IMG/VR virus record: IMGVR_UViG_3300009408_000001
Coordinates: 1-64,000 of that record
DNA length: 64,000 nucleotides
Strand: one strand, 5' to 3'
From: a virus
A model generated the notes under the pieces. That model worked only from the letters and a program-made list of their open reading frames with translations. It had not been told where the DNA came from and did not search any database. Made by a program: the position numbers and the translations under genes. Below, one piece after another: positions 4,235 to 62,947 of the stretch; position 1 is the stretch's first letter; the number at the start of each line of letters is the position of its first letter.

Positions 4235-6595
4235 ATGGCTAAGGGTAAGGATAAAGATAAAATGCCTCCAACGACGAAACCAGCGGCGGTGGCAGCTAAA
4301 GCAACAATTGACGCAAGGGTGTACTTGCCTACCACTAAGAAAAGAAACGCCGGTAAAACACAGAACCTCGATGGGGTTGTACAGGCCCTGTTGAAAAATG
4401 TGACCGACTCCATGGATGACAATTCGGCACACATGCGGTTGCTTCCTGACATAAAGCTCGTCATGCGGGTACTCGTGGCATCCATCCTTTCACCTAAGGA
4501 CTTGCTCGAACCCACTTTAAACTTCACCGCCAAATCCCCAGACACCTCTAAAGAGTTACCGGCTGGGTTACTAAACGAGATATCGGAGTACTTCACAACC
4601 GATGAGGGGTATAACCTTCTTCCAAAATTGCAGAACATGTTAGAAGAAGCGTTGTTTAAGGTTGGGTCGTTCACCTTACTTACATTGCCGGAGTCAACCA
4701 TAGTAGACCTTGTTCAGGAAACAAAGGCATATACTGCCGCACGTAACAATCTGGGCCTAGAGTCATACGGTGCAACTACCCCGGTGATATGGGGTAACCA
4801 ACCGGGTACAACAAAGATGTCAAACCTGGGTACCCTTTACAGCGACAAAGGATCGCGTTTCCGGTTACCCGAACTCATCAAACGAGATAGGTCAAACAGT
4901 ACCGCTAAGTCGTATGGCATGGAGAGTTTCTCGGCACCGGGAATACCCATGCGTAAGGTCGGAAACAGTGGTCCTGGTGAGAACGATGAGTCCACTCCTC
5001 TCGTTAAGATTGTACCTGCTGATTGTGTCTTACCTATTGTCGGGGACGGGGAACCACGTGGGTACATGTTGTTAACCTCTAGGTCCGGTAGTTTCGTGTC
5101 CAGAACAAAGAGTGATTCGGCTATCACTGCAATGCGGAAAGAATTACTTAAGCAAGCAGCGTCCTCTGCACTGGGTAACTTAATGCGTGCAACCGGCATG
5201 GAGACAAAGCAAACCGAAGTACTGGAACGCCCTGAAGAATTGCTGGCGGCGTACTCTGAAAGTATTGATGCTGAGATTCTAGAACAGTTAGAGACAGGGG
5301 GCGGTGAGGCAGGAGAACTTTCTGTGTCCGCATCCAATGAGGTATACGCCCTCATGCTTACCAGGGCACTGGCCGGAATTCCAACGGTGTTGATGTTTGT
5401 ACCCCCCGAACTGGTTACTTACTACGCCTTCGATAAAAACAAGTTGGGTATCGGGGTTTCCATTCTGGAGGAGACCAAAGATTATGGCCTGTTACGTGCT
5501 ACGCTTATGATCTCCATGGTAATGTCAAGCATAAAGAACGGGGTGGGCCACAGTAAGCTCTCCATTGAACTGGATGATGATGATCCAGATGCACCCACTA
5601 CCATTGACCAGGTCATGCAGAACCACGCGGGTTACCAGGTGAATCTATTTCACGATTCATTTCGGTCCTTCCCGGAAATCGCAGAAAGTCTACAGCGGGC
5701 AGGAGTCGAGTTAGAAGTTACCGGTGGTGATACTTTCCCAGGAACAAAAAGTTCATTGGAAGACGCGTCCCGGGATCACCAGACTCCTGACACGGATCTA
5801 CTAGATACACTCCGAAGATGGGAGTATTCTGGTTGGGGGGTTCAACCCGAGATGATTGACAGCACCCTTGAAGGGGAGTTAGCCACCTCTGTAGTATCTC
5901 GGTCAACCATGTTTGCTAAGACGGTGATTGGGTATGCTTCAATATCTGGTTCACACCTATCACACTTTGTGAGGTACTACATCTTCTCTTCTGGTAAGTT
6001 AATCAAGAAGATAAAAGAAGAATACCCGGATGAAGAAGATCGTCGGAAATTCATTAACAGTATCGAGGTAAAGCACCCAATGCCAGATCTGGTTAAGATC
6101 AAAGCACAGTCTGATGCGCTTGAGGAATACACCAACCTTGTAGAGTCGGTTACCAGGTCTGCGGTATCCGAAGACATGTTATCGGAGTTAATGGACGGTG
6201 ACATTGATGCCAGTGTAATGGAGAGTATCCGGAATTCATTCTCTTCCGCCATTATTCGAGATTGGATAAAGGACCAGAATATCCTCCCAGAGGTACATGA
6301 GCTCTTTTCCTCCGAAGGTGGTGAGGTCTTAACAGATCGTATCACTGGACACAATGAGACCCTAATGAAGATCATGGGTAAGGTCATTACCAAGCTGTCC
6401 AAGACCGAACGTAAAGTCGGAGATAAGATCGACAAGGCACGCAATCCTCCTGAGCCAGAAGAAGAACCCACACCAGAACAACCTAGTACAGAAGAACCCA
6501 CACCAGAACAACCTAGTACAGAAGAACCCACATCAGAACAACCTGGTCCAGAAGAACCTGGTCCAGAAGAACCTGGTCTAGTAGGAGAGTTGTAG
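4235..6595 (+). CDS. Portal protein (phiKZ gp129-like)
   Basis: 786 aa; LLPDIKLVMRVLVASILSPKDL and EALFKVGSFTLLTLPEST resemble phiKZ-family portal motifs; divergent from the gp128-like gene; acidic Pro-rich tail. Confidence 0.7.
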   Translation: MAKGKDKDKMPPTTKPAAVAAKATIDARVYLPTTKKRNAGKTQNLDGVVQALLKNVTDSMDDNSAHMRLLPDIKLVMRVLVASILSPKDLLEPTLNFTAKSPDTSKELPAGLLNEISEYFTTDEGYNLLPKLQNMLEEALFKVGSFTLLTLPESTIVDLVQETKAYTAARNNLGLESYGATTPVIWGNQPGTTKMSNLGTLYSDKGSRFRLPELIKRDRSNSTAKSYGMESFSAPGIPMRKVGNSGPGENDESTPLVKIVPADCVLPIVGDGEPRGYMLLTSRSGSFVSRTKSDSAITAMRKELLKQAASSALGNLMRATGMETKQTEVLERPEELLAAYSESIDAEILEQLETGGGEAGELSVSASNEVYALMLTRALAGIPTVLMFVPPELVTYYAFDKNKLGIGVSILEETKDYGLLRATLMISMVMSSIKNGVGHSKLSIELDDDDPDAPTTIDQVMQNHAGYQVNLFHDSFRSFPEIAESLQRAGVELEVTGGDTFPGTKSSLEDASRDHQTPDTDLLDTLRRWEYSGWGVQPEMIDSTLEGELATSVVSRSTMFAKTVIGYASISGSHLSHFVRYYIFSSGKLIKKIKEEYPDEEDRRKFINSIEVKHPMPDLVKIKAQSDALEEYTNLVESVTRSAVSEDMLSELMDGDIDASVMESIRNSFSSAIIRDWIKDQNILPEVHELFSSEGGEVLTDRITGHNETLMKIMGKVITKLSKTERKVGDKIDKARNPPEPEEEPTPEQPSTEEPTPEQPSTEEPTSEQPGPEEPGPEEPGLVGEL
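6461..6580 (+). repeat. In-frame tandem repeats at the portal C-terminus
   Basis: 30-bp unit gaagaacccacaccagaacaacctagtaca x3 (third is a variant), then 15-bp gaagaacctggtc(c/t)a x2; encodes EEPTPEQPST / EEPGP. Confidence 0.95.
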
Positions 6596-10650: not shown

Positions 10651-10733
10651 TTTGCCGTTTCAGCCATTATTAAGAACCATATTACCCTAATGATAACACG
10701 CCCGTGTTATTTAAATTTTTGGAGATTTAAATT
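10651..10733 (+). promoter_or_regulatory. phiKZ-type early promoter module
   Basis: aagaaccaTATTAC (10680-10685), ataacac-gccc-gtgttat hairpin, GGAGA RBS. Confidence 0.8.
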
Positions 10734-36084: not shown

Positions 36085-36168
36085 AAAACCATATTACCTT
36101 AACGATCATAAGCGTTGTGTTTATGGCATTATATTAATCACCGCTCTTACTGAGCAAAGGATACCCAT
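36085..36168 (+). promoter_or_regulatory. Early promoter with two leader hairpins
   Basis: aaaaaccaTATTAC (36092-36097), cataagc..gtttatg and gctc-ttact-gagc hairpins, AAGGA. Confidence 0.7.
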
Positions 36169-45424: not shown

Positions 45425-46873
45425 TTAGATTACCCCACAATCGACTTCGTCGACAAACAGGACGTCTGGTAGTTTCGGAACGATGATTGCTTCACCCATG
45501 ATGTACCCATCGAAGATGTCACCATCTGCGAACACTTCAACAACCACTGTTTCAGTAGCGTCTGGTGAGGCAGGATCACTGACGTCGCCATCGGTCACAT
45601 TCGAATCGGTGGTGGACGTGTCGCTGACATTGGAATCCGCGATATCAACCACTGTGTCAGACCCATCCGTATTGGCAGTATCGCTTGCGGACTGGGCTTC
45701 TAAGACATCTACAGTATCTGACACCGTCGTGGTAGAGGCCGCTCCATCCGGTCGGGTTATGGTCGTGGTCGTATTAGTCCCATCGTCCACAGCGACAGCC
45801 ACAGTGCCATCTACATAGAGCGTGGTAACTGTGCTGGTGCCATCTGGATTGGTAACCGTAGTGACCGATGCCACTGCACTTGCGATTTCGGTAGCTGTGT
45901 CAGACACCTGTCCATCGCTGGAATCCGAGACAGAACCGTCGCTGGAGGCAGTGTCGGTGGAATCCGAAGCCGTGTCACCACTGGAGGTAGTGTCGGTGGA
46001 ATCCGAAACAGAGCTGTCACTTGATGTGTTATCTGTGGAATCCGAAGCCGTGTCACCACTGGAGGTAGTGTCGGTGGAATCCGAAACATTCGAACTGGTG
46101 GTGGTTGTGGTGACAACCCCTTCGGAGTCCGTCTCAGTGGCGATAACCGTTACTGTAGTGTGGTTAGCAAGATGGGCGTCAAACTCCCCACGTAACGTCG
46201 AAATGGTCCCAAGTGCTACATCGTACTTGTCTTGTAAAACACGCATGTTACTGAACATCATGTTCATGTCTTCGCGTATTCTACCAATGACCTGCATGGT
46301 GCGTTCGTCTTGGTTCCTAAGTTCCTCTGCCGAACCCACAAGTGTACGAGAGCCTAAGAAGGCAGAAGCCAGTTCTTTTAGCGCTCTTGGAATGGGGTCC
46401 AGCTCGATGAGATCCTGCAACCGATGATCGTGTTCCCCAGGTGTCCACAGTACCGGTTTGCCCTTGAGGGAGTTAAAATCAACCTCCCTTCCCAACGCTG
46501 CGGTGATTGCCTTTTCGATGTTTTCCAGGACACGGGTTGTCTTAGATTCTGAACCACCTACGGCGTTGTACGTTACGTATATCGTACCGTACAACTGTGC
46601 ATTGGTTAACACTATACTGCCTGCAACTTCTAGCCCTGTATAGGCGGTTGCTTCTGGATCGAAGCCTTCGAATTTGTAATCTGTCCCAGGGACAAGAGGT
46701 GCCGAAGACCCTTCTGCACGTACGGAGAATCCTTTTGTGTAAAAGATTCCCTCCCGCATGAGGATATCATTACCACCTATCGCATTTAACACATGTGGTT
46801 CATCTACAATGTTGTTTGTCGGGTTTGTACCCGACCCATCTACGGAGTACTTTGATAGCTGGAAGACGCTCAT
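45425..46873 (-). CDS. Tail/baseplate-associated virion protein (phiKZ gp131-type N-domain) with a Ser/Asp/Thr-rich stalk
   Basis: D.SGTNPTN.I.DE.H...G.FY...L..GTDY...YNAVGG...KP....P.EH.H..DL; then low-complexity SDSTDT repeats. Confidence 0.65.
   Translation of the reverse strand: MSVFQLSKYSVDGSGTNPTNNIVDEPHVLNAIGGNDILMREGIFYTKGFSVRAEGSSAPLVPGTDYKFEGFDPEATAYTGLEVAGSIVLTNAQLYGTIYVTYNAVGGSESKTTRVLENIEKAITAALGREVDFNSLKGKPVLWTPGEHDHRLQDLIELDPIPRALKELASAFLGSRTLVGSAEELRNQDERTMQVIGRIREDMNMMFSNMRVLQDKYDVALGTISTLRGEFDAHLANHTTVTVIATETDSEGVVTTTTTSSNVSDSTDTTSSGDTASDSTDNTSSDSSVSDSTDTTSSGDTASDSTDTASSDGSVSDSSDGQVSDTATEIASAVASVTTVTNPDGTSTVTTLYVDGTVAVAVDDGTNTTTTITRPDGAASTTTVSDTVDVLEAQSASDTANTDGSDTVVDIADSNVSDTSTTDSNVTDGDVSDPASPDATETVVVEVFADGDIFDGYIMGEAIIVPKLPDVLFVDEVDCGVI
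45920..46090. repeat. In-frame 39/78-bp repeats encoding SDSTDTTSSGDTA-like units
   Basis: 54-bp string gtggaatccgaagccgtgtcaccactggaggtagtgtcggtggaatccgaaaca at 45957 and 46035. Confidence 0.9.
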
Positions 46874-59246: not shown

Positions 59247-60467
59247 ATGTATGAACTAATCAAAACCTACGTTAGACTTAATTACGAGTGGTCGGTTCTA
59301 GACGCTTCGGATGTTGTTGTAAGTGAATTACTGGGTGCCTACGATACGGTACATGTGGTTATGCACGATGGAGAACAGAGTCACAATGTTATCGACCTTT
59401 ATGATTCCTCATTTGGACAAGACATCACCCGGTTATCCCAAACCCTGAGTACCTGGGTTGCGGCCACTTCCAGTACCGATATGGTAATGTTTGTTAGTCA
59501 CCTGGACCACTCTAAGGTAAAGCGAATGCACGTGAGTGATCTACTTGCGTACCCGGTGAAGATCGCACTTGGGGACTCTACCAACGTCGCAGATGAAGAA
59601 GTCCCACACGGTGGAGCACTGGACATGGTGATAACCAACAAACCGGATGCCGACAAGGATTACGTTTCCGCAATGGCCTCGGGTTGCCTGGTTGCGGTGA
59701 ATGATTATATCTTACCTACCACGTTAGTCGGTAAGTCTCTATTTGTAATTGATGCGAAACCCTTCCTGTCCCTTACAAAGGACACCGCACCCATGGTGAC
59801 CGTCTTAAACCTATCTCCCCTTGGTAAGTGGGTGGACTTTGAGATAACCCGTGAGAACGCACATGTGTTGGAGAGACGTGCAGTAGATAAGGACCGTAAC
59901 CAAACCAGAGTGATTGTAGAAGTCGGTACGTTGGCTGCGGGTACTCCTCTTCTGGTACTGGGTGGACAGCCTCATTTTCTAGATGGCACGGTCACCACTG
60001 TAGATCGAGAACACGTTACCATCATTGTGAGTCACAGATCGGTTGCACGCCGTGGGGTGGAACTCCCACCGGGGGTTGATACATATGGGACAACCATGTC
60101 TGGTGTGGTGGATTCTGACTTTGACCCAATTGGATACCTAATGGGCCCTATGTGTCGCCTCCTTCTGATGGAGAACGATGACATCAATCGAAACATCCGT
60201 TTAGCGGGTAGAACTGGGATCCCAGGCGAGTACACTTTGTTTCAGGGTACCGATGCGCTGATGGTACAATCTAACGGAGACATGGCTAGTTACTACATTA
60301 CGGGTAGGTCAGAGCACAACTTTGCGTTGAGTACCACGGTGGGAATGCGTAAGAACTACCTGAGTGAGACAGCGGGGCACGTACCCTGTGAAGGTGGGAA
60401 CCAACGGGTGGATACATCACCCTACCCGGACGAGGTGAGATTACTGGCATTGTACAGCACGAAGTAA
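59247..60467 (+). CDS. phiKZ-like virion structural protein
   Basis: 406 aa, divergent from the tail block; MY.....W...D.S....L...Y, CLVAVN, LLVLGG..H and R.G.PG.Y patterns recalled from phiKZ-family proteins. Confidence 0.55.
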   Translation: MYELIKTYVRLNYEWSVLDASDVVVSELLGAYDTVHVVMHDGEQSHNVIDLYDSSFGQDITRLSQTLSTWVAATSSTDMVMFVSHLDHSKVKRMHVSDLLAYPVKIALGDSTNVADEEVPHGGALDMVITNKPDADKDYVSAMASGCLVAVNDYILPTTLVGKSLFVIDAKPFLSLTKDTAPMVTVLNLSPLGKWVDFEITRENAHVLERRAVDKDRNQTRVIVEVGTLAAGTPLLVLGGQPHFLDGTVTTVDREHVTIIVSHRSVARRGVELPPGVDTYGTTMSGVVDSDFDPIGYLMGPMCRLLLMENDDINRNIRLAGRTGIPGEYTLFQGTDALMVQSNGDMASYYITGRSEHNFALSTTVGMRKNYLSETAGHVPCEGGNQRVDTSPYPDEVRLLALYSTK

Positions 60468-60489: not shown

Positions 60490-60560
60490 GAACCCGTTTC
60501 AAAACCGTATTACCTTACTGATAACACGTCCGTGTTATTTATTCTAAGTGGAGCAGTGGT
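60490..60560 (+). promoter_or_regulatory. Early promoter module, cassette 1
   Basis: aaaaccgTATTAC (60508-60513), ataacac-gtcc-gtgttat hairpin, GGAG. Confidence 0.8.
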
Positions 60561-60836
60561 ATGGAAAAGGGTATTAACGTGGGGTTCGAGAAATTAATCG
60601 AAAGCTTCAGGGCAGAGACAGTCCAACTCGAGGACAAATGGCGTGCAGGAACACTGTACCGGCAACTTAAGTACCGTCGGTTAATGGGTTACTCCCGTCA
60701 CCATCGGTCCATTGTGGATGTGGCTAAAAGGGAAGATGAGTTAGAGGAGGCTCACATCCTGATGCTCGCCGAAAGGACACGCGAATTTCACAAATACCTG
60801 AAGGGGTTCGGATACTACGGTTTGTTTCTAGGATAA
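60561..60836 (+). CDS. 91-aa helical early protein, paralogue 1
   Basis: F.KLIE..R..T.Q.E / HI..LAE.T..F...LK..GY.G.FL shared with the next two ORFs. Confidence 0.8.
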   Translation: MEKGINVGFEKLIESFRAETVQLEDKWRAGTLYRQLKYRRLMGYSRHHRSIVDVAKREDELEEAHILMLAERTREFHKYLKGFGYYGLFLG

Positions 60837-60848
60837 ACCAACATAAGC

Positions 60849-60879
60849 AGGAGGCCCTTAACGGGGCCTCTTTCTTTTT
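60849..60879 (+). terminator. Intrinsic terminator (repeat family)
   Basis: aggaggccc-ttaacg-gggcctct plus T tract. Confidence 0.85.
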
Positions 60880-60962
60880 GCCGTTTCAGCCATTATTAAA
60901 AACCATATTACCTTACTGATAACACATCCGTGTTATTTAACCAATTTGGAGATACAAAGATT
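60880..60962 (+). promoter_or_regulatory. Early promoter module, cassette 2
   Basis: aaaaaccaTATTAC (60906-60911), ataacac-atcc-gtgttat hairpin, GGAGA. Confidence 0.85.
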
Positions 60963-61238
60963 ATGGAAACAATTACCGATGAGATGTTCCAGAAATTAAT
61001 AGAAAAATTCAGAGTAGTGACAGTCCAGATCGAGGAGACATACCGTGCAAACGCACTTGTACGGCAACGTAAGTGCCGTCGGATAGTTGGCAATCCAAGT
61101 ACTCCGCGTCTCGAGGAGGAGTTGGTTAAAATGGAAGATAGGGCATGTGAGAGACACATCACGTTACTAGCAGAAAGGACACGCAGGTTTCAAGACCACC
61201 TGAAGCGGCTCGGATACCGTGGGGTGTTTCTAGGATAG
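60963..61238 (+). CDS. 91-aa helical early protein, paralogue 2
   Basis: ATG 60963; 276 nt like its paralogues. Confidence 0.8.
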   Translation: METITDEMFQKLIEKFRVVTVQIEETYRANALVRQRKCRRIVGNPSTPRLEEELVKMEDRACERHITLLAERTRRFQDHLKRLGYRGVFLG

Positions 61239-61249
61239 GCAACATAAGC

Positions 61250-61281
61250 AGGAGGCCCTTAACGGGGCCTCTTGTTTCTTT
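61250..61281 (+). terminator. Intrinsic terminator (repeat family)
   Basis: aggaggccc-ttaacg-gggcctct. Confidence 0.8.
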
Positions 61282-61371
61282 GCCGTTAATGGAATCAAGG
61301 ATTCTGAAATACCACATTACCTTACTGATAACACGTCCGTGTTATTTAATCCATTTGGAGATACAAAGACT
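61282..61371 (+). promoter_or_regulatory. Early promoter module, cassette 3
   Basis: accaCATTAC (61315-61320), ataacac-gtcc-gtgttat hairpin, GGAGA. Confidence 0.8.
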
Positions 61372-61647
61372 ATGGCAAAAATTACCGATGAGATGTTCCA
61401 GAAATTAATCGAAGAGCACCGGGAACTAACCACACAGCTCGAGAAAGCCTACCACACTGGTGTGGCAAAACGTAAGAACGAGGCCAACCTGGCCTTTGGT
61501 GACGCAATTAGCCCTCGTTTCGAGGAAAAAATGGCTAAACTTGAGGCGAAGATCCAAGAGGAGCACATCCTGTTCCTCGCCGAAAAGACACTCGAATTTA
61601 ACAAAGTACTTAAGAAGTACGGCTACACGGGGGTGTTTCTAAGATAG
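61372..61647 (+). CDS. 91-aa helical early protein, paralogue 3
   Basis: ATG 61372; 276 nt. Confidence 0.8.
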   Translation: MAKITDEMFQKLIEEHRELTTQLEKAYHTGVAKRKNEANLAFGDAISPRFEEKMAKLEAKIQEEHILFLAEKTLEFNKVLKKYGYTGVFLR

Positions 61648-61661
61648 TAAGTAACATAAGC

Positions 61662-61694
61662 AGGAGGCCCTTAACGGGGCCTCTTTCTTTTTTT
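61662..61694 (+). terminator. Intrinsic terminator (repeat family)
   Basis: aggaggccc-ttaacg-gggcctct plus T tract. Confidence 0.85.
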
Positions 61695-61846
61695 GCCGTA
61701 TTTACTAAAACTGGTTTCAATGATCCTGAAACATTAGATTACCTTAGCGAGCATAGACAATATTGTTTAGATCTATCATGGTACACAACCGTTAAGCGCA
61801 ACGGTTGTTTACCCGGGCAATATCGCCCAACCCTTAGGAGATTGAC
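61695..61846 (+). promoter_or_regulatory. Variant early promoter and structured leader of csx16
   Basis: GATTACctta (61738), acaaccgtt-aagcgc-aacggttgt perfect hairpin, gggc-aatatc-gccc, AGGAGA RBS. Confidence 0.55.
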
Positions 61847-62137
61847 ATGTTTAAAACTTACTTCATCTCGCGCCATGCCGGTGCACAGGACTGGGCCTTG
61901 GCCCAGGGTATTGAGGCCGAAATGGTCTCACACTTCGACCCATCTGTCGTTAAAGATGGTGACATTGTGATGGGCACATTGCCCGTCCAAATGGTGGCGG
62001 CTGTAGTCGCTTCCGGTGCTCGGTACTTGCACCTCACCATGTCCATCCCAGCAGAAATGCGTGGAAAAGAAATCAGTTCTTCCATGATGAACGAAATGGG
62101 GGCATCTCTGCAAGAGTTTACTGTTAAGGCCATTTAG
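61847..62137 (+). CDS. csx16: Csx16 (Cas_VVA1548) homologue; candidate cyclic-oligoadenylate ring nuclease / anti-type III CRISPR
   Basis: 96 aa; YFISRHAGAQDW, GDIVMGTLPVQMVAAV, GARYLHL, EMRGKEIS...MGASLQEF match the Csx16 family along its full length. Confidence 0.85.
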   Translation: MFKTYFISRHAGAQDWALAQGIEAEMVSHFDPSVVKDGDIVMGTLPVQMVAAVVASGARYLHLTMSIPAEMRGKEISSSMMNEMGASLQEFTVKAI

Positions 62138-62149
62138 GTCTTAGCAGTT

Positions 62150-62185
62150 CCCAGTGCGCGCTTGCGCTGGGGCTCTTTCTTTTTT
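62150..62185 (+). terminator. Intrinsic terminator
   Basis: cccagtgc-gcgctt-gcgctggg plus T-rich tract. Confidence 0.6.
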
Positions 62186-62199
62186 GTATCTCCGCAGGT

Positions 62200-62267
62200 A
62201 TTCAGAACCATATTACATAAGTGAGCATGAGCAATTGACTTATGTATTAATTATAACGGAGTACAAC
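62200..62267 (+). promoter_or_regulatory. Early promoter
   Basis: agaaccaTATTAC (62211-62216), ataagt...acttat hairpin, GGAG. Confidence 0.7.
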
Positions 62268-62501
62268 ATGTTGTATGTACAAAGACTGTGGGCGATATGT
62301 GTGATTGTCCACTCCCAGAAGACCCTGAGACAGGACTTCACGAAAACGACCTGGTTCTCCATAGCCAGTGGTTCAATCAAGGGCCCCAGAGGCATTGCCC
62401 TGTTCAGCACCTTCCCTGTAGTATCGGGGATCTTTGTATCGTTCATGGTAGTTTGGGCTATCCTGCGTCCCATCTTTAAACGAATAGGTAAGAAAATATG
62501 A
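62268..62501 (+). CDS. Small membrane protein
   Basis: ATG 62268; C-terminal TM plus basic tail. Confidence 0.6.
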   Translation: MLYVQRLWAICVIVHSQKTLRQDFTKTTWFSIASGSIKGPRGIALFSTFPVVSGIFVSFMVVWAILRPIFKRIGKKI

Positions 62502-62782
62502 AAGACGTATATCTAGTAATCGTAACATTGGTCTTGTTGGGTATTGCTCAGTTCGCACAGGCGAACAACGTAATTGTAGTTGCAGTACAATGTTCGTCCA
62601 ACGTGGTGGTCATTTCCATCAATGATAAGAAACAAACCACGGCGGTAACCATACCGTACAACCACCCTAACTACAGGGCAATACAAATGCGGGTGGATTC
62701 TCTTGCCGTGTGGGCAAATGGGAGCCGTGCTGTTGAACTGTGTCGGGTCTTCTCTGGAATGGGAGCACCTGGTGGTGTTTAA
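62498..62782 (+). CDS. Small exported protein (signal-peptide-like)
   Basis: MKDVYLVIVTLVLLGIAQFAQA-NN, AxA cleavage-like site; ATGA overlap. Confidence 0.6.
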   Translation: MKDVYLVIVTLVLLGIAQFAQANNVIVVAVQCSSNVVVISINDKKQTTAVTIPYNHPNYRAIQMRVDSLAVWANGSRAVELCRVFSGMGAPGGV

Positions 62783-62909
62783 GTGGTTACTGAGTTCGAT
62801 TGCCACACTGATGCTCTTAACCATACTAGGGTTATATTTCATTGTACCACACATGGTACCTACCGAGGTATATTACATGCAACCGGGAGCAATCGAACTC
62901 GACAAATAA
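62775..62909 (+). CDS. Small membrane protein (44 aa)
   Basis: GTG 62775 with GGGAG upstream; TM WLLSSIATLMLLTILGLYFIV. Confidence 0.5.
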   Translation: MFKWLLSSIATLMLLTILGLYFIVPHMVPTEVYYMQPGAIELDK

Positions 62910-62912
62910 CAG

Positions 62913-62947
62913 CATAAATCCTCCCCAGTATGGGGAGGGTTTCTATG
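62913..62947. terminator. Bidirectional terminator
   Basis: CATAaatcctcccca-gta-tggggagggtttcTATG. Confidence 0.8.

Follow-up and report, generated by a model that had tools for sequence, protein, structure and literature searches.

We found that a chimallin-encoding, phiKZ-like jumbo phage carries a stand-alone csx16 gene, the product of which is probably an early-expressed ring nuclease that would blunt type III CRISPR signalling by degrading cyclic tetra-adenylate (cA4). The DNA analyzed (the window) covers the opening 64 kb of an IMG/VR virus record of 197,530 bp with a CheckV completeness of about 71%. An earlier note on the window had singled out a 96-aa ORF as a Csx16 protein and a candidate viral ring nuclease. 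The ORF and the elements around it are, in window coordinates:

61662..61693, + strand: terminator of the preceding cassette (stem 61662-61685), a 10-bp stem with 6 GC pairs followed by a T-run
61712..61746, + strand: promoter-like motif with core TAGATTACCTTA at 61735-61746, a "type B" variant of the repeated intergenic motif ..AACCAtATTACCTTA..
61748..61846, + strand: 5′ leader of about 100 nt, unusually long, with three hairpins including 61780-61813 (inverted repeat I2)
61847..62137, + strand: csx16 coding sequence, 96 aa and a stop codon, ATG start; single-domain Csx16, predicted cA4 ring nuclease
62149..62185, + strand: terminator of the csx16 unit (stem 62149-62172), a 10-bp stem with 6 GC pairs and a T-run

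The csx16 gene and its cassette

The 96-aa protein was compared with curated family profiles. Pfam PF09652 (Cas_VVA1548), the sole Pfam family found for it, aligned residues 5-93 with profile positions 1-90 of 91 (E 8.5e-30, 103.2 bits against a gathering cut-off of 25). NCBIfam TIGR02620 (Csx16) matched over positions 1-92 of 93 (E 6.6e-27, 93.6 bits, cut-off 46.35). With full-length matches above both curated cut-offs, there is a very strong case that the protein is a Csx16 member. The earlier note had claimed an end-to-end match from four motifs; the profile searches bear this out, and all four motifs are found in the protein as FISRHAGAQDW, GDIVMGTLP, GARYLHL and RGKEI. A 91-aa ORF overlapping csx16 on the opposite strand is a shadow of this gene.

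Residue conservation was read from a 30-sequence alignment of single-domain family members. The phage protein retains 9 of 9 invariant columns (H10, W16, H29, D39, G43, L45, P46, R72 and A86) and 9 of 9 nearly invariant ones (R9, G12, A13, G38, G57, Y60, L63, G73 and L88), and the same conserved residues are kept across the closest six sequences. The residues expected of the family are all present, namely R-H after strand 1, W16, H29, D39, G-x-L-P, Y60 and R-G at 72-73. An AlphaFold2 model built with this alignment (pLDDT 96.7, pTM 0.86) has strands at 4-7, 25-27, 40-43, 59-64 and 87-91 with helices between them. The predicted five-stranded alpha/beta fold matches the published description of Csx16 as CARF-like and Rossmann-derived, with a five-stranded sheet and flanking helices. 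In the model the conserved polar residues map to loops after strands 1, 3 and 4. Loops after such strands are the usual ligand-binding edge of Rossmann-like folds, and from this placement we infer that the conserved polar residues take part in ligand binding.

To our knowledge, no Csx16 structure has been solved to date. A search of solved structures by sequence gave no match to phage Csx16, and Foldseek of the model against the PDB returned nothing at E ≤ 0.001; the weak rows include Crn1 Sis0455 and Cam1, and the fold matches are only generic Rossmann-like. Unlike AcrIII-1/Crn2 (DUF1874, PF08960), phage Csx16 is not a member of that family: PF08960 matched neither the protein nor anything else in the record, and the structural score against the AcrIII-1/Crn2 fold lay within the range of the generic Rossmann-like matches. 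Natural tandem Csx16-Csx16 fusions of about 200 aa (P0004, P0005, P0007 and P0008) rank among the best matches to the phage protein, which fits a two-domain working unit for Csx16; published AF3 models of the family are likewise dimers (PMC12409355). Many further family matches are 400-600 aa long and carry the Csx16 domain at the N- or C-terminus together with another fused part.

In family, length, single-domain architecture, invariant residues and predicted five-stranded alpha/beta fold, phage Csx16 resembles cellular Csx16 (PMC12409355), the nearest of which is about 50-53% identical to it. Unlike the cellular copies, which lie in type III operons or beside cA4 effectors, the phage copy stands alone in its own promoter-to-terminator cassette. 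The variant promoter-like motif and terminator attributed to the gene by the earlier note were both recovered, at 61735-61746 and 62149-62172, and a ribosome-binding site, AGGAG (61836-61840), lies 6 nt 5′ of the csx16 ATG.

About 24 well-formed copies of the ..AACCAtATTACCTTA.. motif were found in the 197-kb record. All are on the + strand, and each is followed by a ribosome-binding site and an ORF within 50-110 nt; the − strand of the record holds no copy with the extended context. The virion genes of the window sit on the − strand. The csx16 copy belongs to the rarer sub-type (type B) and groups with copies at 36090, 98204 and 160859. The commoner type A is exemplified by copies at 10678, 30057, 42026, 104615 and 184971 (positions in the whole record). 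The type A leader carries an ATAACAC-N4-GTGTTAT hairpin and the type B leader a ACAATATTGT-like palindrome instead, which suggests that the two leader types mark two regulatory sub-classes of one promoter.

The csx16 leader is predicted to fold at −28.8 kcal/mol (z −3.23), a stability reached by 1 of 200 shuffles, with the ribosome-binding site unpaired. The terminator stem at 61662-61685 (−18.9 kcal/mol, z −3.2) would isolate the csx16 unit from upstream transcription; near-identical copies of it close three upstream cassettes (family D6). The terminator stem of the csx16 unit itself folds at −17.2 kcal/mol (z −2.4). A scan for sigma-70 promoters near csx16 revealed nothing above chance, as one would expect where a phage relies on RNA polymerases of its own. 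In every RNAP-encoding jumbo phage profiled, the early promoter turned out to be a conserved AT-rich motif, recognizable from sequence, that precedes operons (PMC7598289). By this analogy the csx16 motif is presumed to be an early promoter of the virion RNAP.

Cassettes of similar build surround the gene. Upstream, at 60490-61700, three tandem single-gene cassettes encode 91-aa paralogues (60561-60836, 60963-61238 and 61372-61647), each with a near-identical promoter motif, leader hairpin and terminator. The cassette downstream of csx16 (62209-62936) holds a 77-aa ORF (62268-62501) and a 94-aa ORF (62498-62782) with a hydrophobic, signal-peptide-like N-terminus. No Pfam or PHROG family was found among these neighbouring genes.

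The carrier phage

At about 71% completeness, a record of 197.5 kb implies a jumbo-sized genome. Large ORFs of the window match PHROGs of phage virion proteins and an NAD-dependent ligase. A 786-aa virion protein shares 27% identity with phiKZ gp129 and has matches in 257 phiKZ-like phage records. When phiKZ proteins were used as tblastn queries, DNA polymerase and subunits of the non-virion RNA polymerase (nvRNAP) were found in the record (E 1e-18 to 1e-106). The nvRNAP is of the split multisubunit type, with homologs of gp55, gp68, gp71, gp73 and gp74 (E 1e-18 to 1e-53). A second, short gp74-like match of about 85 aa and 29% identity (G000:C1:105148-105396) lies far from the subunit gene at 150206-152146.

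A 647-aa ORF occupies the position of phiKZ chimallin, between the DNA polymerase gene and the gp55-like gene. Residues 73-646 of its 647 align with phrog_4795, "nuclear shell protein" (E 8.8e-33), and by tblastn the ORF matches the RefSeq "nuclear shell protein" genes of Ralstonia phages RP12, RSL2 and RSF1. Phage phiKZ chimallin as a tblastn query gave no match in the record, nor did the narrow Phikzvirus chimallin model PF25677, and pairwise BLASTP of the 647-aa protein with phiKZ gp54 was marginal (E 0.088). PhuZ tubulin was found neither by tblastn with phiKZ gp39 nor with PF13809 in this record of about 71% completeness. No cultured phage has a DNA polymerase more than about 31% identical to that of the record, and the nearest cultured phages, at only about 27-31% identity, are spread over many host genera; with so deep a divergence the host cannot be read from the relatives. 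Megablast of the region against cultured phages gave no match, and the conserved flanking gene at 59247-60467, used as an anchor, had no relatives in IMG/VR. We conclude from gene content that the carrier is a deeply branching, chimallin-encoding phiKZ-like jumbo phage of the nucleus-forming type; the chimallin gene, the nvRNAP subunits and the phiKZ-family DNA polymerase agree with what the earlier note had supposed. No tRNA was found in the 64-kb window. In-frame tandem repeats occur within two virion-protein genes, at 6460-6578 and 45915-46088 (periods of 15/30 and 39/78 nt).

Exactly one Csx16 is encoded in the 197,530-bp record. The earlier observation that the 64 kb lack cas genes and arrays extends to the whole record, in which we found no Cas10 of the Cmr2 or Csm1 type, no other cas gene and no CRISPR-like repeat array. 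Phage Csx16 therefore has no genomic link to a type III locus or cA4 effector, which leaves its family membership unaffected; as expected of a viral ring-nuclease anti-CRISPR, it is encoded on a virus and apart from cas genes. Two other contigs, one of 176 kb from JGI and the other from an SRA run, have the same gene order. Both of these csx16-carrying contigs are 100% identical to the window and represent a single phage genotype, so that selection within this phage lineage is not measurable.

Relatives and origin of the phage gene

An exhaustive HMMER search yielded 1,021 Csx16 representatives at E ≤ 0.001. Single-sequence scans of viral and genome collections recovered no relatives, and relatives were recovered when the same collections were scanned with a 6-sequence alignment. 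The closest one, P0006, is 62% identical to the phage protein and is encoded on a 6.4-kb metagenome contig (L006, 148-597). On this contig small ORFs are followed by the two subunit genes of an N4-type RNAP II, the arrangement of the early region of an N4-like phage. P0006 has an extra C-terminal tail of about 55 aa without a Pfam match. A second N4-like contig, from IMG/VR (L009, 2972-8285), has its csx16, for a protein of 96 aa, in the corresponding position 5′ of the RNAP II genes. A divergently oriented gene for the terminase large subunit is about 2.4 kb away, so this csx16 probably lies close to where the genome ends meet and opens the early region.

The jumbo phage copy and P0006 are alike in their company of small genes in a region that is early-transcribed, or presumed to be so, upstream of the RNAP II genes in the N4-like case; they differ in that P0006 belongs to an unrelated phage family and carries the C-terminal extension. 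Both chimalliviruses and N4-like phages inject a virion RNA polymerase at the onset of infection.

Of the 50,697 records of cultured phages searched, only that of Methanobacterium virus Drs3 yielded a Csx16, which is annotated there as "putative CRISPR-associated protein". Like the window copy it stands alone on a virus; unlike it, the Drs3 copy belongs to an archaeal virus, is just 33% identical and has a very long branch in the tree. Csx16 is absent from all of the about 290 cultured chimalliviruses and is consequently not a general strategy of the group.

Cellular copies, mostly from Pseudomonadota, reach about 50-53% identity at best, and annotated csx16 genes occur on five plasmids. The near cellular relatives lie in type III contexts: one adjoins Card1, a cA4 effector, and another a Cas_NE0113 protein. 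In two Rhizobiaceae genomes (L011 and L015) csx16 is directly 3′ of cmr6 with Cas10/Cmr2 upstream, and in Stappia (L033) it is 3′ of a type III RAMP gene. No spacer-like matches to the phage were detected in 1.15 Mb of Csx16-bearing cellular loci.

In a maximum-likelihood tree of 88 sequences and 94 columns, with deeper branches unresolved and a bootstrap short of full convergence, P0006 was the sister of the window copy (UFboot 98 / SH-aLRT 94) within a poorly resolved cellular group. The four viral Csx16 copies require at least two to three origins on this tree. At 62% identity, the window copy and P0006 both retain the family-invariant residues, which points to sustained constraint in phages. 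The GC content of csx16 is 0.51 against 0.48 for the phage, a phage-like composition that would indicate residence long enough to ameliorate. The gene appears to descend ultimately from a cellular, type III-associated csx16 and to form, together with the N4-like phage copy, a small branch carried by phages; the immediate donor may have been another phage or an unsampled shared host. The capture of a host gene, as first proposed, would fit the nesting of the phage copy within cellular Csx16 diversity; a direct capture fits less well with a closest relative in an N4-like phage and a composition that is already phage-like.

Predicted function and alternative explanations

The known weak point of nucleus-forming phages is RNA-guided type III systems and Cas13. 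These phages evade DNA-targeting CRISPR but not type III, which defends against them by sensing exported mRNA (Mayo-Munoz et al., bioRxiv 10.1101/2022.06.20.496707; PMC13282480); the sensitivity stated in the earlier note is in this respect published. Its description of Csx16 as a cA4 ring nuclease is also correct. Purified cellular Csx16 at 1 µM fully degraded 100 µM cA4 to linear products in EDTA buffer; cA3 and cA6 were left intact, even with ten times as much enzyme (Hoikkala et al. 2025, PMC12409355). That viral ring nucleases act as anti-CRISPRs is established for AcrIII-1, as the note had stated, and has been proposed for Crn4b (PMC12830947).

We consider it likely that the phage gene encodes an early-expressed cA4 ring nuclease acting on type III signalling in the following way. 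Early in infection, virion RNA polymerase would start at the repeated ATTACCTTA-type promoter and transcribe the csx16 cassette as a unit of its own. The 96-aa protein would then be made in the cytoplasm and, to judge from the modelled dimers and tandem fusions of its family, would form a homodimer. It would bind cA4 produced by host Cas10 after type III complexes have recognized exported phage mRNA, and would cleave it without metal into linear products with 2′,3′-cyclic phosphate ends. Cleavage by the phage protein is predicted from its conserved residues, the activity being known for one cellular Csx16. With cA4 removed, effectors of the Card1, Csx1 and Can2 type would remain inactive and, by analogy with AcrIII-1, abortive infection or dormancy would not follow.

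Phage Csx16 is, on these grounds, a credible candidate anti-CRISPR against the one CRISPR type that still reaches such phages. Points in favour of this reading include the apparently independent gain of Csx16 by other viruses (two N4-like phages and Drs3), and the type III contexts of the nearest cellular relatives together with the lack of a cas partner in the phage. The virus SIRV2 encodes a ring nuclease homolog, gp37, that was without Acr activity in native archaeal infection, a failure attributed to its middle/late expression (bioRxiv 10.1101/2023.01.10.523387). The lack of a native Acr role for gp37 would weigh against an anti-CRISPR function of phage Csx16; the early-type promoter and the place of the gene in the early region of N4-like phages favour such a function, since gp37 failed through its middle/late timing. 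The one characterized type III system active against a nucleus-forming phage, which uses cA3 and NucC (bioRxiv 10.1101/2022.06.20.496707), also weighs against it, because a cA4-specific enzyme would not counter cA3.

Viral ring nucleases, the Csx16 family and phage-borne Csx16 were all known before; what is new here is a nucleus-forming phage as the carrier. Phage-borne Csx16 is less unusual than the earlier note assumed, as it had already been counted, with no further comment, in 2 of 28,114 phage genomes (PMC12409355). In the related papers that we read, no ring nuclease is described from a nucleus-forming phage, and a June 2026 review, silent on ring nucleases, names Tad1 as the sole anti-defence protein reported from jumbo phages (PMC13282480). 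Tad1 of phiKZ and, by prediction, phage Csx16 are both small proteins with which a nucleus-forming jumbo phage interferes with signalling. Unlike Tad1, which sequesters CBASS and Thoeris signals, phage Csx16 would destroy a type III signal enzymatically, and the two families are unrelated. Only tentatively, with confidence a little short of even, do we suggest that csx16 represents the first type III counter-measure in a chimallin phage, that type III systems signalling through cA4 impose real selection on such phages in nature, and that a phage-adapted Csx16 branch circulates among chimalliviruses and N4-like phages. If true, the type III weak point of nucleus-forming phages could be patched through cA4 destruction, and Csx16, a family without a characterized viral member, would supply a small candidate anti-CRISPR. 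No new principle would be involved, AcrIII-1 and Crn4b being earlier examples of viral ring nucleases.

Among the alternatives, a role unrelated to counter-defence is unlikely, whether as a neutral passenger or through interaction with a host protein. SIRV2 gp37 offers a model for the latter, as it inhibited a host methyltransferase (bioRxiv 10.1101/2023.01.10.523387), and csx16 has been seen in one genotype of this phage only. However, timing appears to set the two cases apart, gp37 being expressed in the middle/late period and phage csx16 lying behind a motif of the presumed early class. A passenger gene is also difficult to reconcile with a csx16 that is intact, phage-like in composition and in possession of all family-invariant residues since its split from the N4-like copy.

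Alternatively, phage Csx16 might be chiefly a sponge for, or a sensor of, cA4 or some related cyclic oligonucleotide, which it would bind and not turn over. Cyclic-nucleotide sponges occur in phages, Tad1 of phiKZ being one (cited in PMC13282480), and a sponge role was raised for the related Csx15, which has almost no activity (PMC12409355). We regard this as quite improbable, given that cellular Csx16 fully degraded a 100-fold excess of cA4 (PMC12409355) and that the phage protein keeps the invariant polar residues R9, H10, H29, D39 and R72, which would be dispensable for a pure binder.

There is an equally small chance that the protein is an active phosphodiesterase whose relevant target during infection is not type III cA4 but a different signal or defence, for example a pathway that uses another cyclic oligonucleotide. 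The specificity of cellular Csx16 for cA4, kept at tenfold higher enzyme concentration (PMC12409355), speaks against such a target, and so do the positions of cellular members of the clade in type III loci or next to Card1. In favour of a different target are the ring nucleases that cut several cOA species, namely Crn4 and, at high concentration, Csx20 (PMC12830947, PMC12409355), and the cA3 signalling of the sole type III system characterized against a nucleus-forming phage (bioRxiv 10.1101/2022.06.20.496707).

Finally, the reading of the stretch as host chromosome beside a cas operon, or as a mis-assembled cas locus with an ordinary cellular csx16, is ruled out by the viral context and the further contigs: in a single viral record of 197.5 kb free of Cas10 and arrays, csx16 is flanked by virion structural genes and phiKZ-family genes, and the JGI and SRA contigs repeat the same gene order.
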